DNA of 53,850 nt, from contig DYGT01000001.1 in the NCBI GenBank assembly GCA_020724555.1, positions 1-53,850 on the forward strand, written 5' to 3'. Shown piece by piece: positions 2,259 to 37,170 of this stretch; positions within the stretch are counted from its first letter, which is position 1; the number at the start of each line of letters is the position of its first letter. This DNA comes from Candidatus Microgenomatus sp. (GTDB taxonomy: Bacteria; Patescibacteriota; Microgenomatia; UBA8517). The notes below the pieces were generated by a model. It did not search any database. It was not told the DNA's origin and worked only from the letters and a program-made list of their open reading frames with translations. The position numbers and the translations under genes are program-made.

Positions 2259-2781
2259 GGTTTGAAAACTTTTTTATAGTAAGCCCAAGTGCTCCGACCC
2301 CGATTAAAGCCAAGGCAGCATACCCGGGACCGGTGTCCGGCAATTCCCCACCCTTGGGCACGGGAGAAGGAGAAGAAGTGGGCGTTGGCGTGGCTGAGGG
2401 TTTTGTGGGAGTGGGGGTTGCAAAATTGGGGTCCCCCGCTTTGTATAAATCACAATTATTATCATTTTCTTTTACGCGTACACTACAGGCGCTATTTGAA
2501 TCCGAAGAAAAATAATTTACCTGCCCACAACCGGATGTGGGATTGGCACAAAAAGAATCGTTTCTGGCGTCAGTCAAGCGCGCCTTTTCATCTTTTAGGT
2601 CACAAAGGCCGTCTTTGTTTGTGTCACCCTGAGGGCAGTCAAAAGTTTGGCAGCGCACGATATCTTTCCCGTCCGGACATTGAGACCAGGCAGTTTGCGA
2701 CTGGGCGGACAGCGTATTTACGCTTAACAACAAACTTAAAGACCAAAAGATAGCTGCCGAAAATAATATTTTTATATTCAT
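2245..2781 (-). CDS. Cys-rich secreted protein with a C-terminal LPXTG (LPDTG) cell-wall sorting signal
   Basis: Signal peptide (MNIKILFSAAIFWSLSLLLSVNTLSAQS), 12 Cys, a TPTPT linker, then LPDTG followed by a hydrophobic stretch (PGYAALALIGVGALGLTI) and a KK tail. Confidence 0.75.
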   Translation of the reverse strand: MNIKILFSAAIFWSLSLLLSVNTLSAQSQTAWSQCPDGKDIVRCQTFDCPQGDTNKDGLCDLKDEKARLTDARNDSFCANPTSGCGQVNYFSSDSNSACSVRVKENDNNCDLYKAGDPNFATPTPTKPSATPTPTSSPSPVPKGGELPDTGPGYAALALIGVGALGLTIKKFSNHENF

Positions 2782-2863
2782 GCTTAAAAATTAGCGGTGG
2801 CAGAAAAATCATCTAAATGAAGAAATCTTGTAATTATATAAGAATATTAATTTCTGTCAAGGA

Positions 2864-3394
2864 CTAAAGCGGTTCATAAAAACCATGCTCGGTCCAACTT
2901 TCACAACTATGGCGTGTTCCTGGAGGTGTACCTTCCGGGTAACAAAGCATACCTGCACGCCTATCAATAGTATCGTAGTAAATATAGGGTACTTCATCGT
3001 CTTCGCAGCGTGATTTATAGACTTCAGACTCAAGCGCGGTGAACACCATAGCGCACAAAGGTGTAATTCTTCTATGGTAGCACCAACCATTTTCATTATA
3101 GCGTGTACAATCATAATAACCACTTGAGTGGGGGATCTCGTCTGGCATTGCAACTAAATCTCCATTATCTACAAGCTGCTGAAGCCAGTTGTCTGTACGC
3201 GGAAAAGCATTATGGGTAATATAATATGATTCAACTGCCCTTCCTATCTGTACAATACCATTAATCCTGCCTGCATCCCGGCTTCTGGCTATACGCTCCA
3301 GAGGATTTACTGCCAATAAAACCACAACGCCCAATGTCCCGATTATTGCAATTACTATCAAAAGCTCGATTAAAGTGAAGCCAAAGCTTTTCAC
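2864..3394 (-). CDS. Type IV pilin-like / pseudopilin protein (prepilin-type N-terminal cleavage/methylation motif)
   Basis: Contains the motif G|FTLIELLIVIAIIGTLGVVVLLAV. The supplied ORF starts at ATG 3466, which would give a 29-aa hydrophobic leader. A GTG at 3394 gives the classical short leader MKSFG|FTLIELL and overlaps the upstream TGA stop (GTGA). The exact start is uncertain. Confidence 0.7.
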   Translation of the reverse strand: MKSFGFTLIELLIVIAIIGTLGVVVLLAVNPLERIARSRDAGRINGIVQIGRAVESYYITHNAFPRTDNWLQQLVDNGDLVAMPDEIPHSSGYYDCTRYNENGWCYHRRITPLCAMVFTALESEVYKSRCEDDEVPYIYYDTIDRRAGMLCYPEGTPPGTRHSCESWTEHGFYEPL

Positions 3395-6300
3395 CTCTTT
3401 AGTATTAAATATGAGGCAACAAAAAGCAAACTGGCAAAACCAATAAACTGCAGTAACTGAGGCCAATAAAAAATATAAATTGTGTATTCACCTTGTGGCA
3501 CCTCCCAGGCATTTGCCCAGTTGTTAAATTTAAGATGTTTAAAAACTGTAAATTTTTTATCAAACGCAATCCATCCCTCATCGTAACCCTGAGAAAGAGC
3601 TACAATCCCCTCGCCACTAACTTCTGCTTTATAGGAAGTTGTGCCGAATTTTTTAGTGCCAGTTACTTCAAGGCCGTTACTTATTATTTCTTGATCATCG
3701 TTTGCTATTTTTATCTTAGAAAGCCACTCTAGAGGTACCGGGTAGGCAGCTACTAAATCTACTTCGTTGATACTTTTTTCGTGCCCGAAGGAACGGGTTT
3801 CGAGATTAAGAGTATAGTTGTCTTTGCTTGCAAAAGGCCAGCTTAAAATCGAGAAATAGTTGTCAAAAGAGTTTGGCGAAAGGAGCACCTCAAGATCATT
3901 TTTTTGCGTTGTTGGGTTAAAAAGATATGCTTTAAGACTTCTCCCCTCTTTATTTTCCCCCCTGATACGCAAGACAAAGCTCTCTTCCGGTGCCAAATAG
4001 CCCAATATTGAATAGTCGCACGATGCGCCTCTTTCTTCTGCAGTATAGATAACTTTATTGTCATTAACTTTTTTTGACACCCCTCCCCTTTGAAAAAGGT
4101 CACAGTTTTTTTCACTTTGCAGGCCTCCATTTATAAAATCTATATAAATTTCTTTAGTCGGAATGTTTAAGGTAAGGTTATCAATGTCACCGATTGGAAT
4201 TTTTAATTCATTTATGAGTTTATCCCAATTAGAATTGAAAAATGTAATATCAGCAGTTTTATTCATCAAAGAAATATTGATAGGGCGGTAAAAAATAGTT
4301 GTTTCAGCTCCGGCTTCCTCAGGAGGACGAGCCGCAAGAACCAACCAATAATTGGCAGTCTCGGGTACAATCATTTCGCGCACAACTAATTCCCAATCTT
4401 TTGATGTGGGGGTTTTATAAAAAATTTCTTCATGGATACATTCGGACTCGCCTTCTTTTACTACACAGAAATGGGGCTTTGCGCCGCTATCCGACCTATA
4501 TGGCAACGAGATTTTCAAAAGCGAATCTTTTTTGAGATTGCCGATTTTTTGAGATGAGCAGGCAACCATGTCTTTTACCTCTATCTCAAGGGCATTGTCT
4601 AACTTTTCAAGGTTAAAGCTCCCTTTTTTATTCTCTCTCTGCCAACAATTTACAAATTCCGAATCAAAAAAAGAAATATCTAATATTTCGCCAGGTGTTT
4701 CGTAAATTTTTATTTGCAGAGATTTATTGGGGTCCAAAAGAAAAGAGGTTAATTCTTTTTTTTCTCCTTGAATAAGATTAGTAACTTTTCCGTTTATAAA
4801 TAGCGCAATGGAGACTGGCTTATCTTTAAGTGTTATATAAAAAGGTTTGAAAAAATTAATCGGAGCCACGTTTTCGAAAGACACGGGGTCAAACAGATTG
4901 ATTGTGATAAGATTATCTTTCAAAGAAACACTTCCATATGCTCTAAACGGATTTTTTAAGGGTGGAATTAATAATTCTTTTCTATCCTGATTGAAGTTTA
5001 TTTGTGATGATATGGATAAAAAAGTTGATCCGTCTATGCTTAACTTTGCTTTTATATTGTTTGGCTTTTCCCTAAGAAGATTTCCAAAGGGATAAACAAA
5101 TTTTTTTGAGGAGACATAGTTACCATACTCCATATAAACAGGGTCGTGTCTTGCATAATCAAGGTCGATATCCGCAGACACGTAAGTTTTGGGTGCATAA
5201 ACAAAGCCGTCTGCTAATGGGACTTTGTAAACTGATAAAAAGCTCTTTTCCCATACCTTTTGAGCACCAATATCGCTTAAAAATTTTTCTGTTTCTTTGA
5301 ATCTTAAAATGTTTGGGTCTCCCCCGGGAACTATTACACTTTTGTCGATCAGAGCGTAGGCGACATCGTATTTATCAAACACCTTTTTAAAAGCATTTTT
5401 GTCTTCGCGGTAGAGCGCTGTTGAGATTTCGTGATAGTAGCCTTCGTTGTATGGGCTCCAGACGTCAAAGGCTCGATCCAAAATCGGCTGCTCAATTCCA
5501 TACCAGAGAAAGCCGCTTCCCCTGTATCCCCAGTCATAAAAATCCCAACCCCAGAATGTTTGGACAGGAAAACGTGCTATCCTCGCCTGCCGGGGCTGAG
5601 ACTGGAAATATTCAAAGAGAAAAAAGTATTCCTCTGGATACTTAACCTGCATTGAATTCGAGATCAAATGTCCTTTAAAGAGCGGTCTTAATTGCAGTGC
5701 AGCAAGTACGGATATAAGTAAACAAAAAATAAATGCAGTGACTAAAGTGTATTTTTTTACCAGCTTACTTATGTAAGCGACAAACAATCCTGCTCCTAAA
5801 GCAAAGCTTAGAGCGTATGAGGTAGACCATTTTGTGAACACGGACCGAAACATTTGGCCAAAAAGCGGCACCGCACGAGACATTGTGTTGTAAACTACAC
5901 CAAGTACGCCTTCTCCTGCCGTAAGCATAAGAAAAGATAAAATAAACATCGCAAAAAGTGATAGTTCCCATCTGTTTCTTCGTAGAAAAGCACCAAATAA
6001 AAAGCCTGCTAGAGATATCGCAAACATACCAATACCAATAATCTCAAATGTGTCAGTACTTACATATTCGCGCCAAAAAGGCATGAGGTAATTAAATTCA
6101 CCGTTTAATTCATCACTATATTCCAGCCAAAAACCCCTCATAAGCATGATGTTTTCGGGATCCCCAAAACCTTGGTTCATAAGTTTTACTTCGGCTGTTG
6201 GAAGAATGCTTGTCTTTGCGCTTGTAAGCACTTCGGATCCGCTAAAGGCAAAATATGCTACCGGGATTGACCAAAATGCTGTGGAAAGAGCTGTAATTAT

Positions 6301-15194: not shown

Positions 15195-15216
15195 CTGAAG
15201 AGAAAAGTTCGCAAGT
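15195..15216 (-). promoter_or_regulatory. 3' strand of the 23S processing stem
   Basis: ACTTGCGAACTTTTCTCTTCAG (minus strand) is complementary to CTGAAGAGAAAGGTCGCAAGT at 19767-19747. This is an RNase III-type stem enclosing the 23S. Confidence 0.6.
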
Positions 15217-15327
15217 CGTTTCGACCGATTCGTACTGATACGCTTAACAGATTACTCCGCTTCCACGTCCAGCCGATCAACCTGGTGTTCTTCCAGGAGT
15301 CTAATGATGAACCCTAATCTTAGGGTG

Positions 15328-15360
<33 letters not shown>

Positions 15361-16000
15361 CATAGGAATGTAGCTACCCGGCGTTGCCGCTGACGCGACA
15401 ACCGGCACACTAGGGATTCCTCCAGCCAGGTCCTCTCGTACTGTGGCCAGCTCCCTTCAAGGTTCAAACGCATACACCGGATAGAGTCCGAGCTGTCTCA
15501 CGACGCTCTGAACCCAGCTCACGTACCACTTTAATGGGCGAACAGACCAACCCTTGGGAGGTGCTCCCCCCCCAGGATGTGGTGAGCCGACATCGAGGTA
15601 GCGAACCGCACCGTCGATATGAACTCTCGGGTGCGACTACTCTGTTATCCCCGGGGTAACTTTTATCCGTTAAGCCCCATCCATTTCCACAATGAGATGG
15701 GGGATCACTAAGACCTGCTTTCGCACCTGCTCCACCCGTCGGTGTCGCAGTCAAGCTGGCTTTAAGCTTTACCCTTTCTCCATGATTTCCATCCATGGTA
15801 AGCCAACCTTTGTGCCCCTGCGTTACAATTTGGCAGGGATCCGCCCCAGACAAACTGCCCATCTGACACTTTCCTTGGACCCGTCTTCAGGGCCCATAAG
15901 TAAGTCTTGTGAGCATTCCAAAGAGAGGTGTTTCATTGGCCCCCGCTAAGCGGGGTCCCTCCTACGCTAAACAATTGGAATGTCCAAAACAATGCCAGAA

Positions 16001-16033
<33 letters not shown>

Positions 16034-16131
16034 GTGTATGTAGGCCGCGTCTTCACAGCCAACGCAATTTCGCCGAGTGAAGGGTTAAGACAGTTGTCAT
16101 CTCGTTACGCCTTTCGTGCGGGTCGGAACTT

Positions 16132-16925
16132 CATGATGTTACTCAAATTTTCATTTGAGATCAGACTATATCTTCATCTTGCTATGAAGCTCCACGAGCT
16201 CACGCTCGTGGTTTCTTCTCAGCTCAGCTTCACAGATCAAAAGCTGTTCAGCTTTTGCTGATAAACTTTAGGAGTTGTTGTTTTTTATATTTTCTTTTTC
16301 CCGCACAATTCATTTGATAAGCTAAATCAATCACTTCATTTAAATATTTTTTATTTAAATGGTGTTTTGAAACAACAAGCTTACAGATCTTTGAAAATAA
16401 AAGAAAATCGTTTTTTTTTTGAAGTCTTAAGTCTATATTTTTCAAAATGAGGAATTATAACTTTAGTCAAATCATTGATCGATCTAACTTCGTATTTATA
16501 ATTTTGATCCTTCTTTGAAAACCTTATAGAACCTACACCAAAATAATTTCTTATTTCTCTAAGCACTGAAAGATTTCTCCTGTGCTGAGAAATAGAAAAA
16601 CTTGGTCTGACTTCAATATTTGTTACCATCTTACTTCTACGGTTAAAGGAAACACAAAAACTTCCTTCACCGTCAGTAAAACCGGTAATATAATTTTCAA
16701 ACTCCATGGTCTTTTTTTAATGCAAGAGCTGGCGTATTTCCCGACTTAGTCGGGACTCACCTTTCGGCTCAGTCGTTACGGCTCGATCACTTAGCATAAA
16801 GCATAATAATCTTGCCTCGGTATTGGCATACTCGTTTAACTTAATAGTAGCACGAGTTTAGCTTTCACCGATATTAGCCAGTTTACTTTCCACACATCGC
16901 TGTGGGTTCGGGCAAATTCCACTTT
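16132..16925 (-). mobile_element. Group I intron inserted after U1951 (E. coli 23S numbering), 794 nt
   Basis: The 5' exon ends ...CTTGTCGGGT (U). The intron ends ...GAAGATATAGTCTGATCTC...AACATCATG (terminal G). The 3' exon resumes AAGTTCCGACCCGCACGAA. AGATATAGTC is the conserved group I P7/P3 core motif. Confidence 0.75.
16248..16707 (-). pseudogene. LAGLIDADG homing endonuclease ORF split by a frameshift in an A10 run
   Basis: ORF 16381-16707 (MEFENYITGFTDGEGSF...HFEKYRLKTSKKK) and ORF 16248-16445 (..KKNDFLLFSKICKLVVSKHHL...GKRKY) together align along the intact paralog at 17011-17538. The frames switch inside T10 at 16411-16420. Confidence 0.7.
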
Positions 16926-16959
16926 ACCCGACAAGGAACTTCGCTACCGTAGAACAGTT

Positions 16960-17704
16960 CATTTATGTTAACTCCGATTCTCATCGGAGATCGGACTATA
17001 TCATTCCCGATTAAATCGGGACTTGGCGTGTAGTCTCTGGGGATTCCAAAACATCACTAATTGTATATTTTCGAGTTCTCCCTTTTCCTTTATTAATCTT
17101 TTCTCTAATTTCAAGCAATTCTTTTAAGCCTTCATCAGTAAGATGGCGCTTATCGTACATAATTTTTACTGCTCTTTTAAAAAGCGAAAAATTATACTTT
17201 TTATTGTTTGAAAAAAAATTATATTTATTAAAAAAAGGAATTATTCTTTCCTGAAGTGCTGTTGGATTTGTAACATCATAAGAATACAATCCATCTTTTC
17301 GTCTCTTAATGATTCCGCATTTAAAATGCCTCTTCATAAGAATCAGAATAGTTATGTCTCTTTGTGAAACATTAAATGATAGCACTGGTTGCCATTTCTG
17401 TTTATAATCTTGTTTATAGCGAAGAGAAATATTAAAACTTCCCTCACCGTCAACAAAACCTGCAAAATACCAACCAATCTTTTCAGGAACACTTACTCGA
17501 AATTGTTTTGGTCTTTCCTGCTGATTATCTCTATTCATCTGATTTTCACTTCTGATAAAACTTAAAATAAGTCTATCAGCAGTACAGATGACCTGTCAAG
17601 ATTTTCCAGCATATAGCCAAGTTTTTCCCCGCCCTTGGCGGGGGAATAGCGAATATCTATGAAATTTATTAATCATAGAGCTATTCTCAACTACTATGTT
17701 ACTA
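16960..17704 (-). mobile_element. Group I intron inserted after U1917 (H69 loop) of the 23S, 745 nt
   Basis: The 5' exon ends ...GGCAGCAGTAACTAT (U). The intron ends ...GATATAGTCCGATCTCCGATGAGAATCGGAGTTAACATAAATG (terminal G). The 3' exon resumes AACTGTTCTACGGTAGCGAAGTTCC. Only 34 nt of exon (16926-16959) separate it from the U1951 intron. Confidence 0.75.
17011..17538 (-). CDS. LAGLIDADG homing endonuclease (single-motif type), intron-encoded
   Basis: 175 aa with the motif WYFAGFVDGEGSFNISL. It lies entirely inside the U1917 intron. Confidence 0.85.
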   Translation of the reverse strand: MNRDNQQERPKQFRVSVPEKIGWYFAGFVDGEGSFNISLRYKQDYKQKWQPVLSFNVSQRDITILILMKRHFKCGIIKRRKDGLYSYDVTNPTALQERIIPFFNKYNFFSNNKKYNFSLFKRAVKIMYDKRHLTDEGLKELLEIREKINKGKGRTRKYTISDVLESPETTRQVPI

Positions 17705-18543
17705 ATAGTTACTGCTGCCGTTTACCGGAGCTTCGATTCAAAGCTATCCCCGCCGAAGCGGGGGTCACCCATCCTCTTAACTTACCGGCACTGGGCAGGC
17801 GTCAGCCCGTATACTTCGTCTTACGACTTTGCACGGACCTGTGTTTTTGATAAACAGTCGGATGACAATCGTTAGCTGCGCCCCGTGAGATAGCGCTTGC
17901 GCGGCATCTCATGGGGAGGACATCTTGCGAACTTACGTCCAGCTTGTTTGCCGAGTTCCTTAACCCTCCTTCTCTCGCTCGCCTTAGTCTTCTCAACCAG
18001 CCCACCTGTGTCGGTTTGCGGTACGGCTTATATTAAATCTTGCTGCGAGCCTTTTCTCGCGGACTGAATGGGTTGCCGTTGCCCTGATCTCTCAAGGCTC
18101 CGCACACTGCTCAATTGAACATTTCGGCGGATTTTCCAACCAAAACTATTTTGCAGCATGCACTCCACTTCACGAAGGAGCGACAATCATCCTGTCCTGT
18201 CAACCCCCAGCTCCATCCCGCAAAGCGGGACAAGCGATCTAATACAAGTACTGGAATTTTAACCAGTTATCCATCGACTACGCCATATGGCCTCGCCTTA
18301 GGAGCCGACTTACTCCTGGCAGACGAACTTCACCAGGAAAACCTTGGGCATTCGGCGGTCCGGATTCTCACCGGACTTGTACGCTACTCATACCGGCATT
18401 CTCACTCCCGCCCGGTCCACCACACTTTACAGTGTGACTTCACTCCTGGCGGGACGCTCCCCTACCCCCCGCCATCGGCGGGGCTCTAGCTTCGGCATTT
18501 AACTTGATCCTCGATACATCTTCGGCGCCCTACTCCTTGACCA

Positions 18544-18605
<62 letters not shown>

Positions 18606-19208
18606 GAGTCGAACTTCCTTTCAAACTTAGTTAAAATTTAGAGGCCTTAGCTGAAAGTCTGGGTTGTTTCCCTTTTGTCCCGGAAGCTTAGCCCTCCGGG
18701 GCTGTCTATTCTGCGTGCCGTAGCAGTATTCGGAGTTTGATTGAGATACCTCGCTTACGCTCAGCACCCCATCCAGTAGCTCTACCCCTGCTACGTTTTT
18801 GCTAGAACACGGTCCCTATAGACCTTTCGGGGAGAACCAGCTATCTCCAGGTTCGATTGGCATATTACTCCTAACCACAAGTCGTCCGAGCAAATTGCAA
18901 CTTACAACGGTTCGGGCCTTCCCCCGATTGTCGTCGGGGTTCACCCTGCTCATGGTTAGATCACCTGGTTTCGGGTCTGTAACATAGTACCTTAAGCGCC
19001 CTTTTAAGACTCGGTTTCCCTCTGCCTCCCCCCGTGAGATAGGTCCAAGCCGAAGTGGCTATGGACACATCTCACGGGGTTAAGCAAGCACTATGAAACA
19101 ACTCGCCGGTTCATTCTTCAATAGGCACGAGATCATCCCGCTAAGCGGGACTCTCTCGGTTTGTTCGCAAACAGTTTCAGGTACTATTTCAACGGGCTTA
19201 CAGCCCTG

Positions 19209-19247
<39 letters not shown>

Positions 19248-19746
19248 TACCAACTATATTTAGCCTTGGAGGATGGTTCCCCCAGATTCCCACGGTGTAT
19301 GTGCACCGTAGTACTCAGGAAATCCCTAGAGCCCCGTGAGATTTTGCGTACGAGATTTTCACTCTCTATGATTGGCTATTCCAAGCCATTCCGCTATCTT
19401 ACGGGGTCCCACATTGGGCTCCTACAACCCTCCGATAGCCCCAAAAGGGATCATCGGAGTTTGGGCTTTTGCCATTTCGCTCGCCGCTACTGAGGCAATC
19501 TCGCTTGATTTATCTTCCTCACCCTACTTAGATGTTTCAGTTCGGGTGGTACCCTTCCACTTGCTTAATATTCTGCCAAAGGCAAAAACTTGGGCAAGGG
19601 ATGATCCCGAGTAACCGGGACCGGGTTGTCCCATTCGGAGACCGCCGGGTCACAGGATCAAGACTCCTTTCCGGCGACTATCGCGGTCTTGTGCGTCCTT
19701 CATCGGTAGTTGATACCAGGGCATCCACTGTCTGCGTTTTGTAAAA

Positions 19747-19767
19747 ACTTGCGACCTTTCTCTTCAG
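19747..19767 (-). promoter_or_regulatory. 5' strand of the 23S processing stem
   Basis: CTGAAGAGAAAGGTCGCAAGT pairs with 15216-15195. Confidence 0.6.
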
Positions 19768-20332: not shown

Positions 20333-21571
20333 ATGAAACGTGGACTGGTAAGTGTAATTCTAGCGATCGCAATTCTGGTCGCTTGGGGCAACCTTTCAGT
20401 TGCCAAAGCACAAGGTAACGAACAACTTGCCACCGAACTCGGTCTTGTAAATGGCGCAGGGCAGATTGTCAATCAGTCTGGTGCCGTCTACTTCGACCCC
20501 CGTGGCAAAACGTTTAGTGTTACCGTTCCCGAAGGCTGCACAGCCTTATGGATCATCGGGTATGATACCGATAAATACGGTGACGACAGATCCCAAGGTT
20601 GGCGCGTAAACTGGGACGGTGGCTCGCTGGTTCTCCATTCAAAAAACAATGAATGGGTCGGGACCTCCGTGAACATAATGGGGCCGAACGAAATTTTGTT
20701 CGATAGCGGCGGCGATTCCCATGGAGCCAACGTTTCCCTGAATTGTTCACCACAGGATCCCTCAAATCCTACGCCGCAACCCACCCCGACTGATGAGCCA
20801 GAGGAACCTATCGTTCCTTCGGAACCAGAGGTCGAACTTCCGGTGAACACCATGTTCTGCCGGATGCCGAATACATTCGGTCTTGAACTGGGAAAATATT
20901 CCATGTTCAATCGTCCTATCGTCGAGGTCAAAGCCGAAGGTGTTGAAGTGACCATCGTCACCAATCAATCTTGGGAAACCGGCCCGTACCGAATCTATGG
21001 CGAAAACGGCCTTGTTGCCGAATTTACCATGGAGGTGGGTCGAGACGCCACGGGCAGCATCACTGGAATCAGCTGCGAACCAGCTTCCAAGCCGGAAGCA
21101 ACTGTTTTTCCCAGCACGTCGTGCTCAGAGGGATGCCCTCCAGCCATGGACGAGCGACCGAACGAGTACGGTCGCTACTGGCATTTTGATGGACTTGAAT
21201 ACATTGAGTCCTTCAAAGAGTTTGCTGTAGTAACCGTAGATGGGTACTATGTGCGCGCCGAAAAGCGTGAAACTCCGTTTGGACCCGTCTGGTATGTGGG
21301 TTCATTGAAACCGGGATTTATGGTCCAAGGCATGCGCCTGTCGGACCTTGCGCACTACCCTGGCCCGTGCAGCGTAAGCGTGGAGCTTACGCAGGTCGCG
21401 GTATATGGCGACCAGTGGCTGATCGAAGTCCTTCCTGGCCAATGGCCCAGCGTTTGGACCGAGTTCGGTCGCAGGGTGGGCTTTACTGAGGAGCTGAGTC
21501 TTCTCATGCTGCCTCAAATGGCACGCCAAGGAAGCATGATCGCTTTCTACCCGGAAAGTTTCAAAAATTAA
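20333..21571 (+). CDS. Secreted hypothetical protein (GC-rich island 2)
   Basis: The ATG at 20333 lies 8 nt after GGAG; the supplied GTG 20291 start is less likely. Signal peptide MKRGLVSVILAIAILVAWGNLSVAKAQG, with a Pro/Thr/Glu linker PSNPTPQPTPTDEPEEP. About 55% GC by hand counts. No family recognised. Confidence 0.6.
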   Translation: MKRGLVSVILAIAILVAWGNLSVAKAQGNEQLATELGLVNGAGQIVNQSGAVYFDPRGKTFSVTVPEGCTALWIIGYDTDKYGDDRSQGWRVNWDGGSLVLHSKNNEWVGTSVNIMGPNEILFDSGGDSHGANVSLNCSPQDPSNPTPQPTPTDEPEEPIVPSEPEVELPVNTMFCRMPNTFGLELGKYSMFNRPIVEVKAEGVEVTIVTNQSWETGPYRIYGENGLVAEFTMEVGRDATGSITGISCEPASKPEATVFPSTSCSEGCPPAMDERPNEYGRYWHFDGLEYIESFKEFAVVTVDGYYVRAEKRETPFGPVWYVGSLKPGFMVQGMRLSDLAHYPGPCSVSVELTQVAVYGDQWLIEVLPGQWPSVWTEFGRRVGFTEELSLLMLPQMARQGSMIAFYPESFKN

Positions 21572-21594
21572 CTTTTGCTTACTTATATGAACGG

Positions 21595-21661
21595 CCGCCT
21601 GGGGTTGAGAGTTGTCTTAAATACTTAGTATTTAACTCTCTTCTCTCAGGCGGATTTTTTT
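21595..21661 (+). terminator. Rho-independent terminator
   Basis: Long hairpin with outer stem CCGCCTG...CAGGCGG and inner stem GAGAGTT.../AACTCTC, followed by A and then T7. Confidence 0.7.
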
Positions 21662-21785
21662 AATTTATATTTGACCTGACACAACTACTCAAATATCTGG
21701 GCCGTGGGGTATATTATAATTTTTTTATTATTTATCCTCTTCAAAAGCGTTTTTTATGCTTAAAAAATTAACATACTTAAAATAA

Positions 21786-21814
21786 TTGTCATACAAGACT
21801 TATTAAGTTAAAAT
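21786..21814 (+). promoter_or_regulatory. Promoter for the tRNA-Ile / GIY-YIG array
   Basis: Reads TTGTCA, then a 17-nt spacer, then TAAAAT. It ends ~22 nt before the first tRNA-like sequence. Confidence 0.5.
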
Positions 21815-21836
21815 AATTGCGCACACACGCACACAG

Positions 21837-21891
21837 GGGTGTGTAGCTTAAGTTGGTTAGACCTGCCTGCCGGCAGGCAGGGCGCTGATAA
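21837..21891 (+). pseudogene. Crippled 5' portion of tRNA-Ile carrying a 20-nt palindrome
   Basis: GGGTGTGTAGCTTAAGTTGGTTAGA equals nt 1-24 of the intact copy apart from one substitution and one extra A. It is followed by CCTGCCTGCCGGCAGGCAGG, then GCGCTG--ATAA, which continues into the anticodon loop with 5 nt missing. Confidence 0.6.
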
Positions 21892-21895
21892 ATAT

Positions 21896-22117
21896 ATGAA
21901 TTATTTTGTTTATATCCTATATAACAAAATTGACAAAAAGTTTTACACTGGTACAACCAACGATTTATTACGCAGATTGATAGAACATAATAAAATTAGC
22001 GGTAGCACTAACACAACAAAATATAGATCGTCATTCATCTTAGTGCACGCTGAAGAATGTAGTAACCGTAACTTTGCTAGAACAAAGAGGAAAATTTTGG
22101 AAAAGCGGATATGGTAG
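21896..22117 (+). pseudogene. GIY-YIG nuclease-family ORF, copy 1 (degenerate, frame-disrupted C-terminus)
   Basis: Sequence MNYFVYILYNKIDKKFYTGTTNDLLRRLIEHNK... The in-frame stop is at 22115-22117. The +1 frame from ~22098 continues KSGYGRELRNKFVKNTGV, which is homologous to the C-terminus of copy 2, and stops at the TAG inside the intact tRNA-Ile (22156-22158). The conserved PW is replaced by SSF. Confidence 0.55.
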
Positions 22118-22147
22118 AGAGCTGCGAAACAAATTTGTTAAAAATAC

Positions 22148-22224
22148 GGGTGTGTAGCTCAGTTGGTTAGAGCGCTGTCCTGATAAGACAGAGGTCCTTG
22201 GTTCGAATCCAAGCACACCCACCA
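22148..22224 (+). tRNA. tRNA-Ile (GAU), intact, with encoded CCA
   Basis: GGGTGTGTAGCTCAGTTGGTTAGAGCGCTGTCCTGATAAGACAGAGGTCCTTGGTTCGAATCCAAGCACACCCACCA forms a canonical cloverleaf with anticodon loop CTGATAA. Confidence 0.9.
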
Positions 22225-22229
22225 ACTCC

Positions 22230-22478
22230 ATGCCTTGGTATACATATATACTCAGAAGTATTAAATCCGGTAAACATTATATAGGCTCAACTAATAACAT
22301 AGAACGTAGGCTACAAGAACACAATAGCGGAAAGACCAAATCAACACGAAATAAAGGACCTTGGGAAATCATTTATACTACAGAGAAATACAAAACCAAA
22401 ATTGATGCAAGAAAACGAGAACTTAAAATAAAATCCTATAAAGGAGGCAAAGCTTTTAAAAAATTAGTTCAGGGTTAG
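22230..22478 (+). CDS. GIY-YIG nuclease-family protein, copy 2 (catalytic domain only, 82 aa)
   Basis: MPWYTYILRSIKSGKHYIGSTNNIERRLQEHNSGKTKSTRNKGPWEIIY...ARKRELKIKS shows the GIY..YIG..R..EHN..E pattern. The ATG lies 5 nt after the tRNA CCA. The TAG stop lies in a tRNA D-arm-like GGTTAGAGCG. Confidence 0.85.
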   Translation: MPWYTYILRSIKSGKHYIGSTNNIERRLQEHNSGKTKSTRNKGPWEIIYTTEKYKTKIDARKRELKIKSYKGGKAFKKLVQG

Positions 22479-22551
22479 AGCGCCCCGCCGATGGCGGGGA
22501 GGTCCTTGGTTCGACAAAGCACCTGCTTTGCTCATTTTCCAAGCACACCCA
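22465..22551 (+). pseudogene. Crippled tRNA-Ile-like 3' portion (D arm to acceptor 3' strand)
   Basis: Reads TAGTTCAGGGTTAGAGCG, then CCCCGCC-GAT-GGCGGGG, then AGGTCCTTGGTTCGA, then a 24-nt insert CAAAGCACCTGCTTTGCTCATTTT, then CCAAGCACACCCA. The 5' acceptor strand is missing, the anticodon stem is closed onto GAT, and the T loop is interrupted. Confidence 0.55.
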
Positions 22552-22615
22552 CAAATTAGAACGGTCCGATTAAACCGGAATAGTACGAAGCAAAATACGA
22601 TAGTATAATAGTGTT

Positions 22616-24760
22616 ATGCAAAACGACCACCTTACGACACTATATTTAAAAGTTCCGAGAAACTCCGAAACCACACCAGAATCTGCTCAAACATTTCTGG
22701 CAACGCTAACTCAGATCAATTCTGTAACCAATTGGCAGAGGATCAGGGGTATGCGGCCCGAAGCATTATCCTTAGAAATAGTCTTAATCAACCAGCAAAT
22801 CCATTTTGCCATCACCTGCAGCAGAAGCTTAGCTCCTTTTGTCGAAACACAACTTCGCTCCAACTACCCCCTTGTAATTATTGAGTACGGAGCTGACCCT
22901 ATTGGCGACCGCGAATTGGAAGTCACCACTTTGACAACCAGAAAAGGTAATTACTATCCACTTGCTACTTATTCAAGCTTCCAAGATATAGATCCCCTTT
23001 CTTCGGTTCTGTCTGTTCTATCTAAAGGAGACCCGGATGAATTTGCTATTATCCAATTTGCCTTGGAAAGCACAAGTACCGGCTGGCAAAGCGCAGGTAA
23101 CAAATTTGCCGACACCGGAGGGGGTAAAACTGAAGAAGGAACTTATCTCAAACATCCGGATGAATCCATCATAAAAGAAAAAGTTTCGTACCCAGGTTTT
23201 AAATGTTCTATTAGGCTTGGTGCAAACTCAAAAAAAACCCTAACAGAAATCAAAAGTGCCATGGGAGTTTACACCAGAAGCGATGGTAATTCCCTTTCCA
23301 CCAAAAGTTCTTCTTTTTTTAAACGAGGAAGCTCCAAAGAGTATTTAAAAAAAAGAATGGTGACTGGACGCGATATCTTAAATATCGTGGAGCTGGCTAC
23401 CCTTTGGCATTTGCCAAACGAAAAAATTAAAACTGCAAGTATTGTGTGGGGCACATCTGTTCTTTCAGAGCCCCCTTCTAATCTTCCAATCTCTTTAGAC
23501 TTAAAAGAAGAAGATAAAAAAACGATCAATTTTTTTGCTAAAACTCCTTTTAAAAACCATGAATCTATTTTTGGCATCAAAGATCACGACCGTCGCCGCC
23601 ATATGTGGGTTGTAGGAAAAACCGGAACAGGAAAATCTACTATGATCGCCAATATGGTAATTGACGATCTTAAAAAAAATCGCGGTGTAAGTGTCATAGA
23701 CCCTCATGGAGATCTTTGTGAAACAGTCTTGGATTATATCCCCTCTCATAGAATTAATGACGTAGTGTACTTTAATCCTGCAGATCGTGACTTTCCCATT
23801 ATTATCAATCCTCTGGAAGTCACAAACCGTGAGGAAGCAGAACTTGTGGTTAGCGGCATTATGGCGGTATTCACCAAGGTGTGGGCCAATGTATGGAGCG
23901 CACGCATGGAATACATTCTTCGCAACTCTCTTTTGACATTGGCTCAAATTGACGGCACTACGTTGGCTGATGTTTTAAGGCTTTTAGCAGACAAAGGTTA
24001 CCGTAACAACGTCCTGCAAAAAATTGACGATAGAAACCTAATTGATTTTTGGAAGACGGAATACGACCAAATGCCGGATCGCCTGCAAAAAGAAGCCATT
24101 GCCCCTATCCAAAACAAAGTCGGACAATTTGTTACAAGCCCCATGATCCGCCGTATCATTGGCCATCCCAAAAGCACTATCCAAATAGACGACGTGATGA
24201 ATGAAGGAAAAATAATGCTTTGTAATTTATCTCAAGGAAGGCTAGGTGAGGACAATTCCGCCCTTCTTGGGGCCGTGTTGATCACCAAATTTCAACTCGC
24301 AGCCATGCACAGAGTGGAAACACAGGAAGACACACGCGTAGATCACTATCTATATGTCGACGAGTTTCAAAATTTTGCCACTCCTTCATTCATAAAAATT
24401 TTATCAGAAGCCAGAAAATACAGACTAAGCCTGATGCTTGCCAACCAGTATATGGCACAAATTCCCGAAGAAGTACAAAAAGCAATCCTGGGTAATGCCG
24501 GCACCCTCATTAGCTTTGCTATCGGGGCTGAAGACGCGGCCATTATCCACAAAGAATTTGCCGAGGTGTTTAGTGAAAACGATTTAGTTAACCTCAGTAA
24601 TTTCCAGATTGCCATAAAGCTTATGATTGACGGTCATGCTGCGAGGCCGTTTTTGGCAAACACCTTGCCGCTTCCGGCTTCACGAAACCAAAACCGAGAA
24701 AAAGTGTTAAAGGTCTCACGCGAGCGCTGGAGCTTAAAAAATAACTCAAATTCCGGGTAG
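22616..24760 (+). CDS. HerA/VirD4-like P-loop NTPase (DUF87-type ATPase core with a TraD/TraG-type C-terminal region) and an unknown ~330-aa N-terminal domain
   Basis: Walker A WVVGKTGTGKST followed by VIDPHGDL; Walker B LYVDEFQNF followed by ARKYRLSLMLANQYMAQI. No TM helices are evident. Confidence 0.7.
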   Translation: MQNDHLTTLYLKVPRNSETTPESAQTFLATLTQINSVTNWQRIRGMRPEALSLEIVLINQQIHFAITCSRSLAPFVETQLRSNYPLVIIEYGADPIGDRELEVTTLTTRKGNYYPLATYSSFQDIDPLSSVLSVLSKGDPDEFAIIQFALESTSTGWQSAGNKFADTGGGKTEEGTYLKHPDESIIKEKVSYPGFKCSIRLGANSKKTLTEIKSAMGVYTRSDGNSLSTKSSSFFKRGSSKEYLKKRMVTGRDILNIVELATLWHLPNEKIKTASIVWGTSVLSEPPSNLPISLDLKEEDKKTINFFAKTPFKNHESIFGIKDHDRRRHMWVVGKTGTGKSTMIANMVIDDLKKNRGVSVIDPHGDLCETVLDYIPSHRINDVVYFNPADRDFPIIINPLEVTNREEAELVVSGIMAVFTKVWANVWSARMEYILRNSLLTLAQIDGTTLADVLRLLADKGYRNNVLQKIDDRNLIDFWKTEYDQMPDRLQKEAIAPIQNKVGQFVTSPMIRRIIGHPKSTIQIDDVMNEGKIMLCNLSQGRLGEDNSALLGAVLITKFQLAAMHRVETQEDTRVDHYLYVDEFQNFATPSFIKILSEARKYRLSLMLANQYMAQIPEEVQKAILGNAGTLISFAIGAEDAAIIHKEFAEVFSENDLVNLSNFQIAIKLMIDGHAARPFLANTLPLPASRNQNREKVLKVSRERWSLKNNSNSG

Positions 24761-26089: not shown

Positions 26090-26235
26090 AATTTGGTTTT
26101 ATCGCAAACCCGTGCGGATCTGGTTTAGTTCGCCCTCAAAAGGGCCAGTCAATCCATGATCTAAAAACTGGGGTGTCATTATTCACTCCTTAGAAAGGAG
26201 GTGATCCATCCGCTCCTTCCAGAACGGATACCTTG

Positions 26236-26838
26236 TTACGACTTAATCCTCATCGCTGGATTCAGCTTCTCCCGCAACCTGCGGGATTCGGCTGCCCCCA
26301 ACTTTGCTGACTTGACGGATTGCGCTTCATCTAGATTATTGCGCGTTCCCGCTCCGGCGTGCGGCTTTCCCGCACCGGGCGAGCCGTAATGCTTGTTCAT
26401 GCTCAATTTAAACTCAGTTATATACTTGAGTTCATCTTTGGTAAGTTTGCGTATATCCTGCCTGCCTTTTACTACCTCAGCTATGCTGCAAAAAGCCTCA
26501 AAACTTTTTGCTTTGTAGCCTAATAGTTTGTGTTTTTGAAAAAACGGAATAATTACATTATAAATATCATCCCTTTTTGTAACTTCAAAAACATAAGCCG
26601 GCAATCGACCATTTTTAGCCGATTTCTTTTGATATACACTACCTATTCCAAAATATTGTTGAATACTTTCCAACAAAGGTTTATTTCCAATTGCTTGCGA
26701 GATAAAAAATCGTAAATCGATTCTGTTATTTTTTCGCAAAACAACTAAAAAACAACCCTCACCTTCAGTTAACCCAACAATGTATTGAGCCAAGAACATT
26801 ACGTATTTCCCTTCATCATTCATATTTTCATAGTACAA
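26236..26838 (-). CDS. LAGLIDADG homing endonuclease encoded in the 16S insertion
   Basis: Motif YIVGLTEGEGCFLVV; the rest aligns with the 23S intron ORFs (IIPFFQKHKLLGYKAKSFEAF...). There is no stop inside the insertion. The frame runs 82 nt into the 16S 3' exon and ends at the TAA of GGATTAAGTCGTAAC. Confidence 0.8.
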   Translation of the reverse strand: MYYENMNDEGKYVMFLAQYIVGLTEGEGCFLVVLRKNNRIDLRFFISQAIGNKPLLESIQQYFGIGSVYQKKSAKNGRLPAYVFEVTKRDDIYNVIIPFFQKHKLLGYKAKSFEAFCSIAEVVKGRQDIRKLTKDELKYITEFKLSMNKHYGSPGAGKPHAGAGTRNNLDEAQSVKSAKLGAAESRRLREKLNPAMRIKS

Positions 26839-27166
26839 ATATTACCCGAAAATATCAATGACTAATATGGAATCTGCTGACTTCCTTGCAAGCAATTATC
26901 TAGTAACTCACAAGGATCTCCCTGGGTCGCAGCAATTTCTGTTCCTGACATGAATGAAAAGCTTAATTTCGCAACTTCCTTCCGACCGCCCAACAGAAGT
27001 CGCTGTGCTTGTTTTTATTCATCCCTGCCATTTGTCTCACGCCCTCCACCCTTTTCAGTTACCTAAAAAGGACTGCGATTATTTTTTTTGACTATTCACC
27101 CCGTTCTACGGGGCAAAATGGGATTTTAACCCACTAGAAATTACTACTGCCAGGCGCGTTGTGCTT
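26318..27166 (-). mobile_element. 849-nt insertion in the 16S decoding centre (between C1402 and C1404, E. coli numbering; boundary ambiguous by 1 nt)
   Basis: The conserved GTACACACCGCC is followed by AAGCACAACGCG..., and the conserved sequence resumes as CGTCAAGTCAGC after ...GAAGCGCAATC. The boundaries lack the U(-1)/terminal-G signature seen in the two 23S introns. Confidence 0.7.
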
Positions 27167-28535
27167 GGCGGTGTGTACAAGACCTGAGAACGTATTCACC
27201 GCGGCATAGCTGATCCGCGATTACTACCAATTCCACGTTCAAGCCGCCGAGTTGCAGGCGGCTATCCCCACTGAGAGGCCGTTTGATGGGATTAGCTCCG
27301 CGTTTCCGCTTGGCAACCCATTGTCGGCCCCATTGTAGCATGTGTGTAGCCCCGGATATAAGGGCCATGCTGACCTGACGTCGTCCCCACTTCCTACCCG
27401 CATAGCGGGTTAGTCTCCCGAGAATATTTAACTCAGGACAGGGGTTGCGCTCGTTACCCCACTTAAGGGAACACCCCACGGCACGAGCTGACGACGGCCA
27501 TGCAACACCTGTGTAATCCCTGTCAACAAAGTTGACATTCCAACCTATCTCTAGGCGGCATTAAGAATTACATGTCAAACCCGGGTAAGGTTCTTCGGTT
27601 CGTTTCGAATTAAACCACATGCTCCACTGGTTGTGCAGGTCCCCGTCAATTCCTTTGAGTTTTACGCTTGCGCGCGTACTCCCCAGGCGGCTCGCTTCAC
27701 GCGTTAGCTTACGCCCATGATCCCATCCATTACCTGTAACAAACCAGAAATATAAAATTCATACAGAGAATGGATGGGACCAGGGGCTAGCGAGCATCGT
27801 TTACGGCTAGGACTACAGGGGTCTCTAATCCCTTTCGCTACCCTAGCTTTCGTCCCTGAGCGTCAAAGAATCCCTAGCTACCCGCCTTCGCCCTTGGAAT
27901 TCCTACCGATATCAACGGATTTCACCCCTACACCGGTAGTTCTAGTAGCCCCGAGATCTTTCTATCCTGGCAGTATTACATCCCCTCCTGAGGTTAAGCC
28001 CCAGTCTTTGAAATGTAACTTACCAAGACGCCTGCGAACGCTTTACGCCCAATAAATCCGGGCAACGCTTGCACCCTCCGTATTACCGCAGCTGCTGGCA
28101 CGAAGTTAGCGGGTGCTTATTCGCCATAGACTCTCACCTATGGCAAAAGAAGTTTACGACCCGAAGGCCTTCATCCTTCACGCGGTGTCGCGGCGTCAGA
28201 CTTTCGTCCATTGCGCACGATTCCCAGTTGCTGCCACCCGTAGGTGTATGGCCCGTGTCTCAGTGCCATTCTGGGGGGCCACGCTCTCACGCCCCCTAAC
28301 CGTCATTGTCTTGGTAGGCCATTACCCTACCAACTAACTGATGGTACGCAGGCTCCTCTCTCGGCGAATAGTTACATCCTTTCTCCCATCCTTCATCTGG
28401 GAAGACAATGTTACCATTATCTCACCAAAAGAAGGATGGGGCTTATGCGGTATTAACCCCGCTTTCGCGGGGCTATTCCCCACCAAGAGGTAGATTCCTA
28501 CGCGTTACTCAGCCGTTCGCGACTCCCTGTCCATC

Positions 28536-28799
28536 TTATGCTCTATTCAAACTATTACTGATTCTTAATTTCAGCTGTCTATATGAACTAGAAAACTTCT
28601 TCAAATTATTTTCTCTTTTTATGCTATCTTTCTTTGATAAAAAAGCTTCATAATAAACAAGTTTCCAAGGAATACCATATTTAGTAGATTTGTTTAAACC
28701 TTTGTTATGTTCATTAAATCTTTTTTTTAAATCTCTCGTAGAACCAATATAAATTCTTCTTTGGTATTTAGAACTTTTTAAGATATAAACATAATTCAT
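28536..28799 (-). CDS. GIY-YIG nuclease-family protein, copy 3, inside 16S helix 6
   Basis: Sequence MNYVYILKSSKYQRRIYIGSTRDLKKRFNEHNKGLNKSTKYGIPWKLVYYEAF...IKRENNLKK. The supplied ORF start at 28835 is an upstream in-frame ATG that abuts the rRNA stem. Confidence 0.8.
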   Translation of the reverse strand: MNYVYILKSSKYQRRIYIGSTRDLKKRFNEHNKGLNKSTKYGIPWKLVYYEAFLSKKDSIKRENNLKKFSSSYRQLKLRISNSLNRA

Positions 28800-28835
28800 A
28801 TTTATAAAATTATATGGCATTTTTATAAAGCACAT
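28536..28835 (-). mobile_element. 300-nt insertion forming the loop of 16S helix 6, consisting almost entirely of the GIY-YIG ORF
   Basis: It is closed by a perfect 11-bp stem, CCCTGTCCATC (28846-28836) with GATGGACAGGG (28535-28525). These sit where h6 lies, between GCAAGTGGAACG and AGTCGCGAACGGCTGAGTAACGCG. Confidence 0.7.
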
Positions 28836-28948
28836 GATGGACAGGGCGTTCCACTTGCATGCTTAATGCACACCGCCAGCGTTCACCCTGGGCCAGGATC
28901 AAACCCTCAAAAAGTGACGAGAACATGTGTTTACACAGTTCGTCTTTA

Positions 28949-28968: not shown

Positions 28969-29056
28969 AATGTCAAAGTACTTAAAAATTCCTCTCACAA
29001 TTACTATTGAAGTTGTTACCCCGCCAAGCGGGGAAGTTAACCTTGTAGTGAAGATA

Positions 29057-37155: not shown

Positions 37156-37170
37156 CGAATCCCTGCCGGG
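37156..37170 (+). pseudogene. Duplicate of the tRNA-Gln 3' end (T loop to acceptor)
   Basis: CGAATCCCTGCCGGG is identical to 37082-37096 of the intact tRNA and lies 56 nt downstream of it. Confidence 0.4.

Follow-up and report, generated by a model that had tools for sequence, protein, structure and literature searches.

The 53,850-nucleotide (nt) stretch analysed here, positions 1 to 53,850 of contig DYGT01000001.1 (assembly GCA_020724555.1, Candidatus Microgenomatus sp.) and called the window below, carries an isoleucine transfer RNA (tRNA-Ile) locus in which a promoter-like site is followed by a 5' pseudo-tRNA-Ile containing a palindrome, a frameshifted GIY-YIG nuclease gene, the intact tRNA-Ile, an intact GIY-YIG gene and a 3' pseudo-tRNA-Ile. 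The best explanation of the locus is that one kind of small chromosomal element, which nests in structured-RNA genes, has been stacked up there over at least three generations. The unit, about 300–360 base pairs (bp) long, is composed of a gene for a predicted nuclease of about 80 amino acids (aa), a GC-rich hairpin linked to the protein subfamily and a disabled duplicate of the target tRNA. About 130 further loci from many bacterial groups share this design of a miniature GIY-YIG gene nested in a tRNA gene. Confidence is high for the anatomy and its generality, and moderate to low for the mechanism proposed below.

The anatomy was re-read over positions 21400-23000 using ARAGORN, Rfam, Pfam, a repeat finder and pairwise alignment, and the elements listed in the original prediction (promoter, 5' fragment with palindrome, first gene copy, intact tRNA, second gene copy and 3' fragment) were all found in their places. 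The promoter-like site TTGTCA-N17-TAAAAT (21786-21814, plus strand) matched 10 of 12 positions and may function as a promoter; four such sites occur in the region where 3.5 are expected, which is not above chance, and a motif of the TTGTCA/TAAAAT type also stands 5' of tRNA-Ile in the relatives L095 and L096. The site is probably the original promoter of tRNA-Ile and would now serve the entire array. The 5' pseudo-tRNA-Ile begins with a segment (21837-21861, plus strand) that corresponds to tRNA positions 1-24 and differs from the intact copy by a single substitution and an additional base. A perfect 20-nt palindrome, CCTGCCTGCCGGCAGGCAGG (halves CCTGCCTGCC and GGCAGGCAGG), follows at 21862-21881, placed at the D-loop/D-stem boundary, and has a single occurrence in the window even when three mismatches are allowed (0 expected). 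The tRNA sequence is then continued at 21882-21891 (plus strand) by GCGCTGATAA (GCGCTG..ATAA), which holds the 3' strand of the D stem together with the 5' strand and loop of the anticodon stem and has lost 5 nt. This continuation ends in the anticodon loop, 4 nt 5' of the first gene's ATG (21896), a truncation point that recurs in loci L089, L126, L127 and L145.

The first GIY-YIG gene, copy 1 (21896-22157, plus strand), is a pseudogene of a subfamily characterised by the C-terminal motif LKSGxGR. Its frame is broken within approximately 22079-22097, at the codon of the catalytic Glu. The open frame closes at 22117, and the homologous one continues as far as U8-A9-G10 of the intact tRNA-Ile, whose TAG (22155-57) provides its stop codon. 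The same locus was found on eight other metagenome contigs from different samples, with 99.6-100% identity and no insertions or deletions, and the frameshift is therefore real and not an assembly error. The intact tRNA-Ile(GAU) (22148-22224, plus strand) has a new spacer and an encoded CCA, the only one among the five tRNAs of the window. Copy 2 (22230-22478, plus strand) is an intact gene of 82 codons for a protein of the C-terminal IKSYKGG subfamily; it starts 5 nt past the CCA, and its stop codon is the D-loop TAG of the following pseudo-tRNA, within GGTTAGAGCG. Over the 52-54 N-terminal residues aligned by tblastn, copies 1 and 2 are about 37% identical.

The 3' pseudo-tRNA-Ile (22465-22552, plus strand) runs from tRNA position 8 to the 3' end, retains the ancestral 3' trailer CACCCACAA and is orthologous to the 3' pseudo-tRNA of L096. 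A covariance-model scan with Rfam, as suggested in the original prediction, gave 75.9 bits for the intact tRNA-Ile and 18.4 bits, below the threshold, for this fragment. A 17-nt hairpin of the family type, CCCCGCC-GAT-GGCGGGG (22483-22499), stands exactly in place of the 17-nt anticodon arm, and a second hairpin, CAAAGCA-CC-TGCTTTG plus a tail, forms a 23-nt insertion in the T loop (22515-22537, plus strand), with a homologous insertion in L096. Further downstream lies an element that was absent from the earlier list, a relic of an older pseudo-tRNA-Ile (TTAGAACGGTCCGATTAAACCGGAATAG; 22556-22583, plus strand) made up of the 3' part of the D arm and a hairpin of a second type, GTCCG-ATTAAA-CCGGA. 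It is identical at 24 of 28 positions to GATTAGAGCGGTCCGGTTTAACCGGACAGG, a pseudo-tRNA segment present twice in L096.

The GIY-YIG genes are the sole genes between the tRNA copies, and no tyrosine or serine recombinase was found at the border. A group I intron or a split tRNA was considered and rejected: no intron family turned up in 21500-22900 when Rfam was searched permissively (E up to 10), and an intact tRNA lies between the fragments. By the named homologues of the gene downstream of the locus, the window belongs to a Patescibacteria genome close to Woesebacteria. The locus is situated between tRNA-Ala and the 16S gene of a minus-strand ribosomal RNA (rRNA) operon (5S, 23S, tRNA-Ala, 16S), on the strand opposite to the operon, and the divergent tRNA-Ala/tRNA-Ile arrangement is also present in the relatives L095 and L097.

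Four related contigs, found through homologues of the downstream 714-aa gene, provided the uninterrupted tRNA-Ile alleles that the original prediction had proposed to look for. L097 and L098 (downstream protein 75% and 74% identical, respectively) have the promoter, tRNA-Ile, about 50 nt and then the gene, which is the empty state. L095 (90% identical) has the same promoter motif and a tRNA-Ile 100% identical to the intact copy, with no GIY-YIG gene and no fragments. L096 (93% identical) is differently filled: its promoter is followed by a 5' pseudo-tRNA in which the anticodon arm is replaced by GTCCGG-TTTAA-CCGGAC and which has no gene behind it, then by the intact tRNA-Ile, a GIY-YIG gene whose start is broken and whose identity to copy 2 is 44%, and a 3' pseudo-tRNA with the hairpin of its 5' counterpart and the T-loop insertion seen in the window. 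A working tRNA-Ile is kept throughout the window and these four alleles. The allele series shows that, after the lineages split, inserts at this site were gained, changed and in part lost again on several occasions; it also supports the earlier claim that the GIY-YIG genes are nested insertions keeping one working tRNA-Ile. As a separate observation, L095 carries a 227-aa open reading frame (ORF; L095 2701-3384) 4 nt past its tRNA-Ile, with no Pfam match and absent from the window and L096-L098, which may be another kind of tRNA-abutting insertion. A conjugative island bounded by tRNA-Ile, suggested by the TraD/TrwB-like domains of the next gene, was rejected because that gene has thousands of close Patescibacteria homologues and directly follows tRNA-Ile in the insert-free relatives.

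All three GIY-YIG genes of the window, the third of which lies in the 16S gene and is described below, scored above the PF01541 cut-off of 22.6 bits (copy 2, 64.2; copy 1, 45.9; 16S copy, 55.6). The 82-aa protein of copy 2 has a single domain over residues 3-69, and has the full catalytic set of the superfamily, residues Y6, Y17, G19, R27, H31, N32 and E64 being invariant in 47 relatives. Its AlphaFold model (mean local confidence, pLDDT, 88) is a bare GIY-YIG domain with a three-stranded sheet plus helices, and the best matches of the model in the PDB were the UPF0213 protein BH0048 and the SLX1 nuclease domain (template modelling score of about 0.7), followed by I-TevI and UvrC. Taking sequence and fold together, copy 2 comes closest among solved proteins to two UPF0213 members, BH0048 and EF2693, and to the nuclease domain of SLX1; SLX1 is a structure-specific endonuclease. 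The NCBIfam intron-endonuclease family TIGR01453 is matched by the first 40 residues of copy 2 alone, with 28.5 bits against a cut-off of 56.05. The original prediction had pointed to phage T4 SegB, a free-standing GIY-YIG homing endonuclease in a phage tRNA cluster (PMC2330249), as a precedent; for an 80-aa, single-domain, SLX1/UPF0213-like protein below the intron-endonuclease cut-off, this holds as an analogy only. The ratio of non-synonymous to synonymous substitution rates (dN/dS) between orthologue pairs was 0.04-0.16, so the protein has been kept functional over long periods.

For the wider family, 80 of 312 loci of the IKSYKGG subfamily were sampled from species-representative (GTDB) genomes; for the LKSGxGR subfamily, six contexts were inspected first and then 80 metagenome loci. 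tRNA calls were made by ARAGORN, and the expected rate was taken from the tRNA density elsewhere in the sampled loci. The IKSYKGG gene lay within 70 nt of a tRNA in 71/80 loci, always on the same strand (about 2.5% expected), and the LKSGxGR gene lay within 100 nt of a same-strand tRNA in 57/80 metagenome loci and of an opposite-strand tRNA in none. A sub-clade with the C-terminus KTTYGKRYIK among the LKSGxGR-sampled loci had no tRNA. About 30 tRNA species (anticodons) are involved across the sampled loci, which by record titles, some of them doubtful metagenome-bin labels, belong to Patescibacteria, Ignavibacteria, Bacteroidota, Omnitrophota, Marinimicrobia and others.

In most loci, local alignment detected a partial copy of the same tRNA beyond the gene, well above shuffled controls; a downstream intact tRNA is accompanied by a 5' part and an upstream one by a 3' part. 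Two layouts result. The 'down' layout (pseudo-tRNA, gene, intact tRNA) was present in 45/80 GTDB loci, five of which also have an upstream tRNA, and in 44 metagenome loci. Its pseudo-tRNA is still preceded by the original upstream region of the tRNA, in which an extended -10 box can often be recognised. The pseudo-tRNA itself starts at position 1 and reaches the T loop in IKSYKGG loci and the anticodon loop in LKSGxGR loci, with the ATG a few bases further on. In 32 of the 45 'down' loci the gene's stop codon is located inside the downstream intact tRNA, where it is typically formed by the TAG in the D loop or at positions 8-10. The 'up' layout (intact tRNA, gene, pseudo-tRNA) was present in 29 GTDB loci, including the same five, and in 13 metagenome loci; the gap between tRNA and gene is 1-11 nt or about 45-60 nt, and the pseudo-tRNA extends from approximately position 8-18 to the 3' end. 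In every case a complete tRNA survives beside the unit, which abuts it and is co-oriented with it. The window combines a 'down' unit (copy 1) and an 'up' unit (copy 2) around one common intact tRNA-Ile, and the order of 5' fragment, gene and intact tRNA, then intact tRNA, gene and 3' fragment, that the original prediction had singled out is made up of the two layouts that are canonical throughout the protein family.

Tandem arrays and mosaic loci were also encountered. In L083 (Bacteroidales; 2350-4150), one intact tRNA-Pro(TGG) is followed by four tandem 363-nt units, each with a spacer, a GIY-YIG gene and a pseudo-tRNA whose D arm is replaced by a hairpin. Two relics without a gene are found upstream, and ARAGORN reports three copies with the hairpin as tRNA-Pro. 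In the mosaic loci the pseudo-tRNA is closer to another genome's tRNA than to its own neighbour (for example, the pseudo-tRNA-His of L010 resembles the tRNA of L009), which fits a cassette that brings tRNA sequence along. Nearest-neighbour proteins shared the tRNA anticodon in 39/55 cases (4 expected) and the layout in 48/55 (27 expected). When flanks were compared, many pairs were syntenic, and others had only the unit in common, their flanks possibly being too diverged for blastn. Comparison of the related genomes L046, L069, L078 and L033 shows an inversion, with respect to a tRNA-Ser(TGA)/GIY-YIG unit, of the gene block beside it; the unit therefore lies at the inversion breakpoint.

The pseudo-tRNAs carry hairpins that differ between the two subfamilies. 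In IKSYKGG loci, one arm of the spare tRNA is replaced by a hairpin with the consensus Y-CCCGC-C..G-GCGGG-R: the anticodon arm in Gly, His, Ile, Thr, Tyr, Lys, Asp and Glu, the D arm in tRNA-Pro(TGG) and the T arm in some tRNA-Ser. The pattern CCCGC-N2-8-GCGGG occurred at 3.25 per kilobase (kb) within 140 nt of the gene ends and at 0.067 per kb in the rest of the loci, a 48-fold difference. The closing pair of the stem was C·G in 43 and T·A in 34 of 85 hairpins (91% Watson-Crick) and the next pair outward was unpaired, which amounts to compensatory change preserving a stem of 7 bp. In class II tRNAs (Ser, Tyr), the D or anticodon loop often contains a double hairpin (CCACCGCC..GGCGG, then YCCGCC..GGCGG). 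The hairpin is always on the gene-proximal side, whether 5' or 3' of the ORF. The hairpin loop holds the anticodon of the tRNA, as it does with GAT in the window, in 8/50 loci against 3 expected (p ~0.003); that the anticodon is selectively retained is unproven, as the excess comes largely from tRNA-Tyr loci that are related to one another, and loops with GAT are found in tRNA-Pro contexts too.

In LKSGxGR loci, the exact 20-mer palindrome of the window was recovered from 15/80 metagenome loci, or from 18/80 within two substitutions. These unrelated loci involve tRNA-Arg (four anticodons), tRNA-Lys, tRNA-Leu and tRNA-Asn, and the usual site is the D-loop/D-stem boundary, as in the window (for example, ..GGTAGA[palindrome]GCAG.. 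in L145). The palindrome-bearing loci are also the best matches of copy 1. Other LKSGxGR lineages have longer hairpins, such as CCCGCCTCGACTCGC..GCGAGGCGGG at tRNA-Gln. The CCCGC hairpin was present in 58/80 IKSYKGG and 5/80 LKSGxGR loci, and the palindrome in 1/80 IKSYKGG loci. Because the hairpin type tracks the protein lineage, it is no footprint of break repair and argues for specific recognition; the alternative in the original prediction, that the palindrome is left over from hairpin repair of a double-strand break, is contradicted by the exact 20-mer beside relatives of copy 1 at 15 unrelated loci, and the anticodon arm described there as rewritten is a conserved family hairpin and not a product of decay. 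Judged by sequence, the pseudo-tRNAs are remodelled, not randomly decayed, and the hairpin is specific to the protein subfamily.

We consider it probable that the units are selfish, possibly partly domesticated, elements, each consisting of a minimal SLX1/UPF0213-like nuclease plus a hairpin, that nest in tRNA genes and spare one working copy. In function they may resemble the Ssn proteins, which are single-domain GIY-YIG enzymes of 94 aa; their own genes are bordered by hairpin repeats, next to which they cleave single-stranded DNA (Chenal et al. 2025, PMC11893778). In the window, unit 1 would comprise the inactivated copy 1 together with the palindrome and the 5' pseudo-tRNA, having gone into the 5' half of tRNA-Ile, and unit 2 the live copy 2 and the 3' pseudo-tRNA with CCCCGCC-GAT-GGCGGGG on the 3' side, followed by the relic of a third unit.

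For the mechanism we infer the following. The unit has no visible promoter of its own and therefore probably rides on the tRNA transcript, with transcription starting at the tRNA promoter. The nuclease would recognise its own hairpin as folded single-stranded DNA, by analogy with the Ssn family, and the resulting break inside tRNA-homologous DNA would lead to recombination with an intact tRNA gene. With the neighbouring tRNA as partner, this could produce tandem arrays or loss; with a partner in another genome, it could produce spread. A crossover 5' of the hairpin would give the 'down' layout and one 3' of it the 'up' layout, for which slightly different element geometries would be needed. 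tRNA genes would offer near-universal homology, a strong promoter and a harmless site, provided that a full copy is regenerated. Since the stop codon often lies within the tRNA, the geometry suggests that the RNase P cut leaves the upstream message without a stop and would thus keep the level of the nuclease low. A further step, which we regard as doubtful, would be to see here a distinct class of mobile element without transposase or integrase, in which a nuclease and its cognate hairpin move from one structured-RNA gene to another by exchanging one DNA hairpin, be it a tRNA arm or the tip of an rRNA helix, for another while the DNA is single-stranded, with the near-universal tRNA sequence serving as homology, the target being rebuilt and the tRNA-overlapping stop throttling the nuclease.

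Several points weigh against a selfish, Ssn-like element. Hydrolytic GIY-YIG enzymes are unable to rejoin DNA, and host recombination must therefore be assumed. The exact replacement of a tRNA arm by a hairpin is not accounted for. Much of the sampled diversity looks vertically inherited, given the syntenic flanks and the same anticodon in neighbours, so that direct evidence of recent movement comes only from the allele series and a few mosaic loci. A tblastn comparison with a phage and a plasmid collection found no relatives in either, and no carrier between cells was seen. The strong purifying selection is also compatible with a host function. The published Ssn SRM pattern HGTCWY..YYVSBRH..WNVSBRG..RNCYNB had no match near 80 genes and none in the window.

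Classical homing would have the intact tRNA genes cut and the gene copied in by repair, the hairpin being an immunity scar that destroys the site. The presence/absence alleles at one site are what it predicts, and the common decayed copies (copy 1, L096 and the first L083 unit) fit its gain-decay-loss cycle; protein lineages also stay with one tRNA species, the replaced arm would mark the target, and T4 SegB provides a precedent in a tRNA cluster (PMC2330249). An intact, identical tRNA is regenerated at every filled locus, however, where the element would go on cutting its own host copy. A scar also needs no conserved sequence, yet the 7-bp stem or the 20-mer recurs across phyla and isotypes and tracks the subfamily, and the protein is without a DNA-binding domain of the Seg/I-TevI type (28.5 bits against the cut-off of 56). 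On balance, homing of this kind appears unlikely.

A role at the RNA level or in the host was judged somewhat more unlikely again. Here the nuclease would be a useful resident structure-specific enzyme, for instance for hairpins or R-loops at highly transcribed RNA genes, expressed from tRNA transcripts; the hairpins and remnants would be elements of untranslated regions that stabilise or process the messenger RNA (mRNA), and the intact tRNA would supply RNase P/Z cuts. The SLX1-like fold, the dN/dS of 0.04-0.16 and the syntenic flanks of several pairs, which suggest vertical inheritance, are in keeping with such a role, yet it leaves unexplained the constant duplicate of the neighbouring tRNA, the gene-free site in close relatives, the tandem arrays and, beyond stability, why the hairpin sequence tracks the subfamily. 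The gene is always co-oriented with the tRNA, the gap from the tRNA 3' end to the ATG is just 1-11 nt in many loci, and a gene-proximal hairpin could protect an mRNA end; against this, RNase P acting at the intact tRNA would take the stop codon off the upstream gene in 32/45 loci, and the pseudo-tRNAs are without an acceptor stem. The RNase P/Z punctuation by tRNA-like fragments proposed in the original prediction is not supported: the crippled copies would be poor punctuation because one acceptor strand is missing, and only the intact tRNA could act in this way. Plain tandem duplication of a tRNA-Ile/GIY-YIG unit with random decay of the outer tRNAs, without mobility or a role for the hairpins, is very improbable: three tRNA-Ile-derived segments do alternate with two homologous genes and the family does have tandem arrays, but the two genes are of different subfamilies and only about 37% identical, the supposed decay consists of conserved subfamily-specific hairpins at arm boundaries, the same layouts recur at about 30 tRNA species in many phyla, and relatives have empty alleles, all in agreement with the original prediction, which had argued against simple tandem decay.

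Within the window, the rRNA genes carry further insertions. The third GIY-YIG paralogue (28536-28799, minus strand) is intact, encodes 87 aa and lies in rRNA orientation within a 301-nt insertion of the 16S gene (~28534-28846), at the tip of helix 6 (model position ~80), bounded by the inverted repeat CCCTGTCCATC/GATGGACAGGG. The 3' end of the 16S gene (AAGGAGGTGATCC at 26195, 1492R motif at 26231) is displaced by about 900 nt past the stop of the Rfam alignment (26195-27118, minus strand), which implies a large insertion near position 1400 with a LAGLIDADG gene (26236-26838). The 23S gene (15207-19754, minus strand) is lengthened by insertions to 4548 nt against a model of 2925 nt, and contains a LAGLIDADG gene (17011-17538) and a 132-aa ORF (15464-15862). 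A 20-nt hairpin, cuugUCCCGCUUUGCGGGAu, of the same type as the hairpins of the pseudo-tRNAs, is inserted in the 23S gene at ~18210-18232. A 17-mer on the rRNA strand, CCCCGCCGATGGCGGGG (18467-18483, minus strand), equals the hairpin of the 3' pseudo-tRNA-Ile and gives no evidence of spread, because it is aligned to a native 23S helix. A hairpin of the family type, CCCCGCTTGGCGGGG (29020-29034, rRNA strand), is located in the leader, about 110 nt 5' of the 16S gene.

Near the other four tRNAs of the window, no tRNA fragments were found besides an exact 15-nt repeat of the T arm of tRNA-Gln (tRNA positions 54-68) at 37156-37170, 56 nt 3' of that tRNA, which may be an old attachment-site scar or due to chance. 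Upstream of the tRNA-Ile locus, the strain variant L004 is 99.7% identical to the window from 21573 on and wholly different before it (L004 1-569, with another gene ending at L004:552), and L002 starts at exactly 21573; this position, just past a 426-aa gene, marks a rearrangement breakpoint.

The tRNA-nested GIY-YIG arrangement is widespread and orderly, and it appears to be undescribed. In the full-text literature, the coverage of which leaves out most subscription journals, no link of small GIY-YIG genes with tRNA genes or with arm-replaced pseudo-tRNAs was found. Genes annotated as small 'GIY-YIG nuclease family proteins' rank with the most frequent unnamed genes of bacteria, and two large subfamilies of them now have a genomic niche and a candidate DNA partner. 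The arrangement also accounts for some of the incomplete or unusual tRNA genes that complicate tRNA annotation, some of the hairpin-bearing copies being called tRNAs by ARAGORN. It offers many natural pairs of protein and hairpin, which, if Ssn-like, would make up a wider set of sequence-specific cutters of single-stranded DNA. It raises the questions of how an element with merely an 80-aa nuclease spreads, and why selfish elements in all domains converge on tRNA genes.

Hairpin repeats tied to a small protein that acts on folded single strands are a feature of REP/BIME sequences with RAYT, of IS200/IS605 and of the Rickettsia palindromic elements, and hairpins of these types can land inside RNA or protein genes. 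REP/RAYT and IS200/IS605 depend on HUH transposases with covalent intermediates and not on a hydrolytic GIY-YIG enzyme, and their repeats are mostly intergenic and dispersed, whereas those described here are embedded in tRNA duplicates. Integrase-borne islands and prophages in tRNA genes, with attL/attR repeats that derive from the 3' end of the tRNA, likewise have an intact tRNA on one side, a partial direct repeat on the other and a regenerated target. They differ in that no recombinase is present here and the 'island' is one 250-bp gene, and in that the repeat, a 5' or 3' part, reaches up to nearly the whole tRNA, with the spare copy altered by a hairpin.

With Seg proteins and I-TevI, the units share the GIY-YIG catalytic domain, the place among tRNA genes, the selfish pattern of presence and absence and the frequent decay. 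Seg proteins and I-TevI have 200-260 aa with a linker and DNA-binding modules, in contrast to about 80 aa here; SegB lies between tRNA genes with neither a tRNA duplicate nor a hairpin, and no phage relatives of the present proteins were found. GIY-YIG genes have also been described in non-intron rRNA insertions of bacteria of the candidate phyla radiation (CPR), and are regarded as standing outside homing (Tsurumaki et al. 2024, PMC11270868). The likeness lies in a small GIY-YIG gene in a structured-RNA gene, at a helix tip and without intron features, and the helix 6 copy in the 16S gene of the window is such a case. That study concerns rRNA only and does not mention tRNA, and an rRNA insert is tolerated in place, whereas the tRNA insert comes with a duplicate of the gene.

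Ssn proteins and the present ones are both single-domain GIY-YIG proteins of 80-94 aa without a DNA-binding domain, their genes are flanked by GC-rich hairpins with a stem resembling TTCCCGC..GCGGGAA, and protein lineages have their own hairpins; an insertion-sequence-like architecture of gene plus hairpin was remarked upon by the Ssn authors (PMC11893778). The differences are that the hairpins described here sit in duplicated tRNA genes and replace their arms, tRNA being unmentioned in PMC11893778, that in the window they are not dispersed in hundreds of copies, and that the nearest solved proteins are UPF0213 and SLX1. By analogy, the Ssn proteins with their hairpin repeats would be the closest described system, with SegB and the integrase tRNA islands as functional analogies only.

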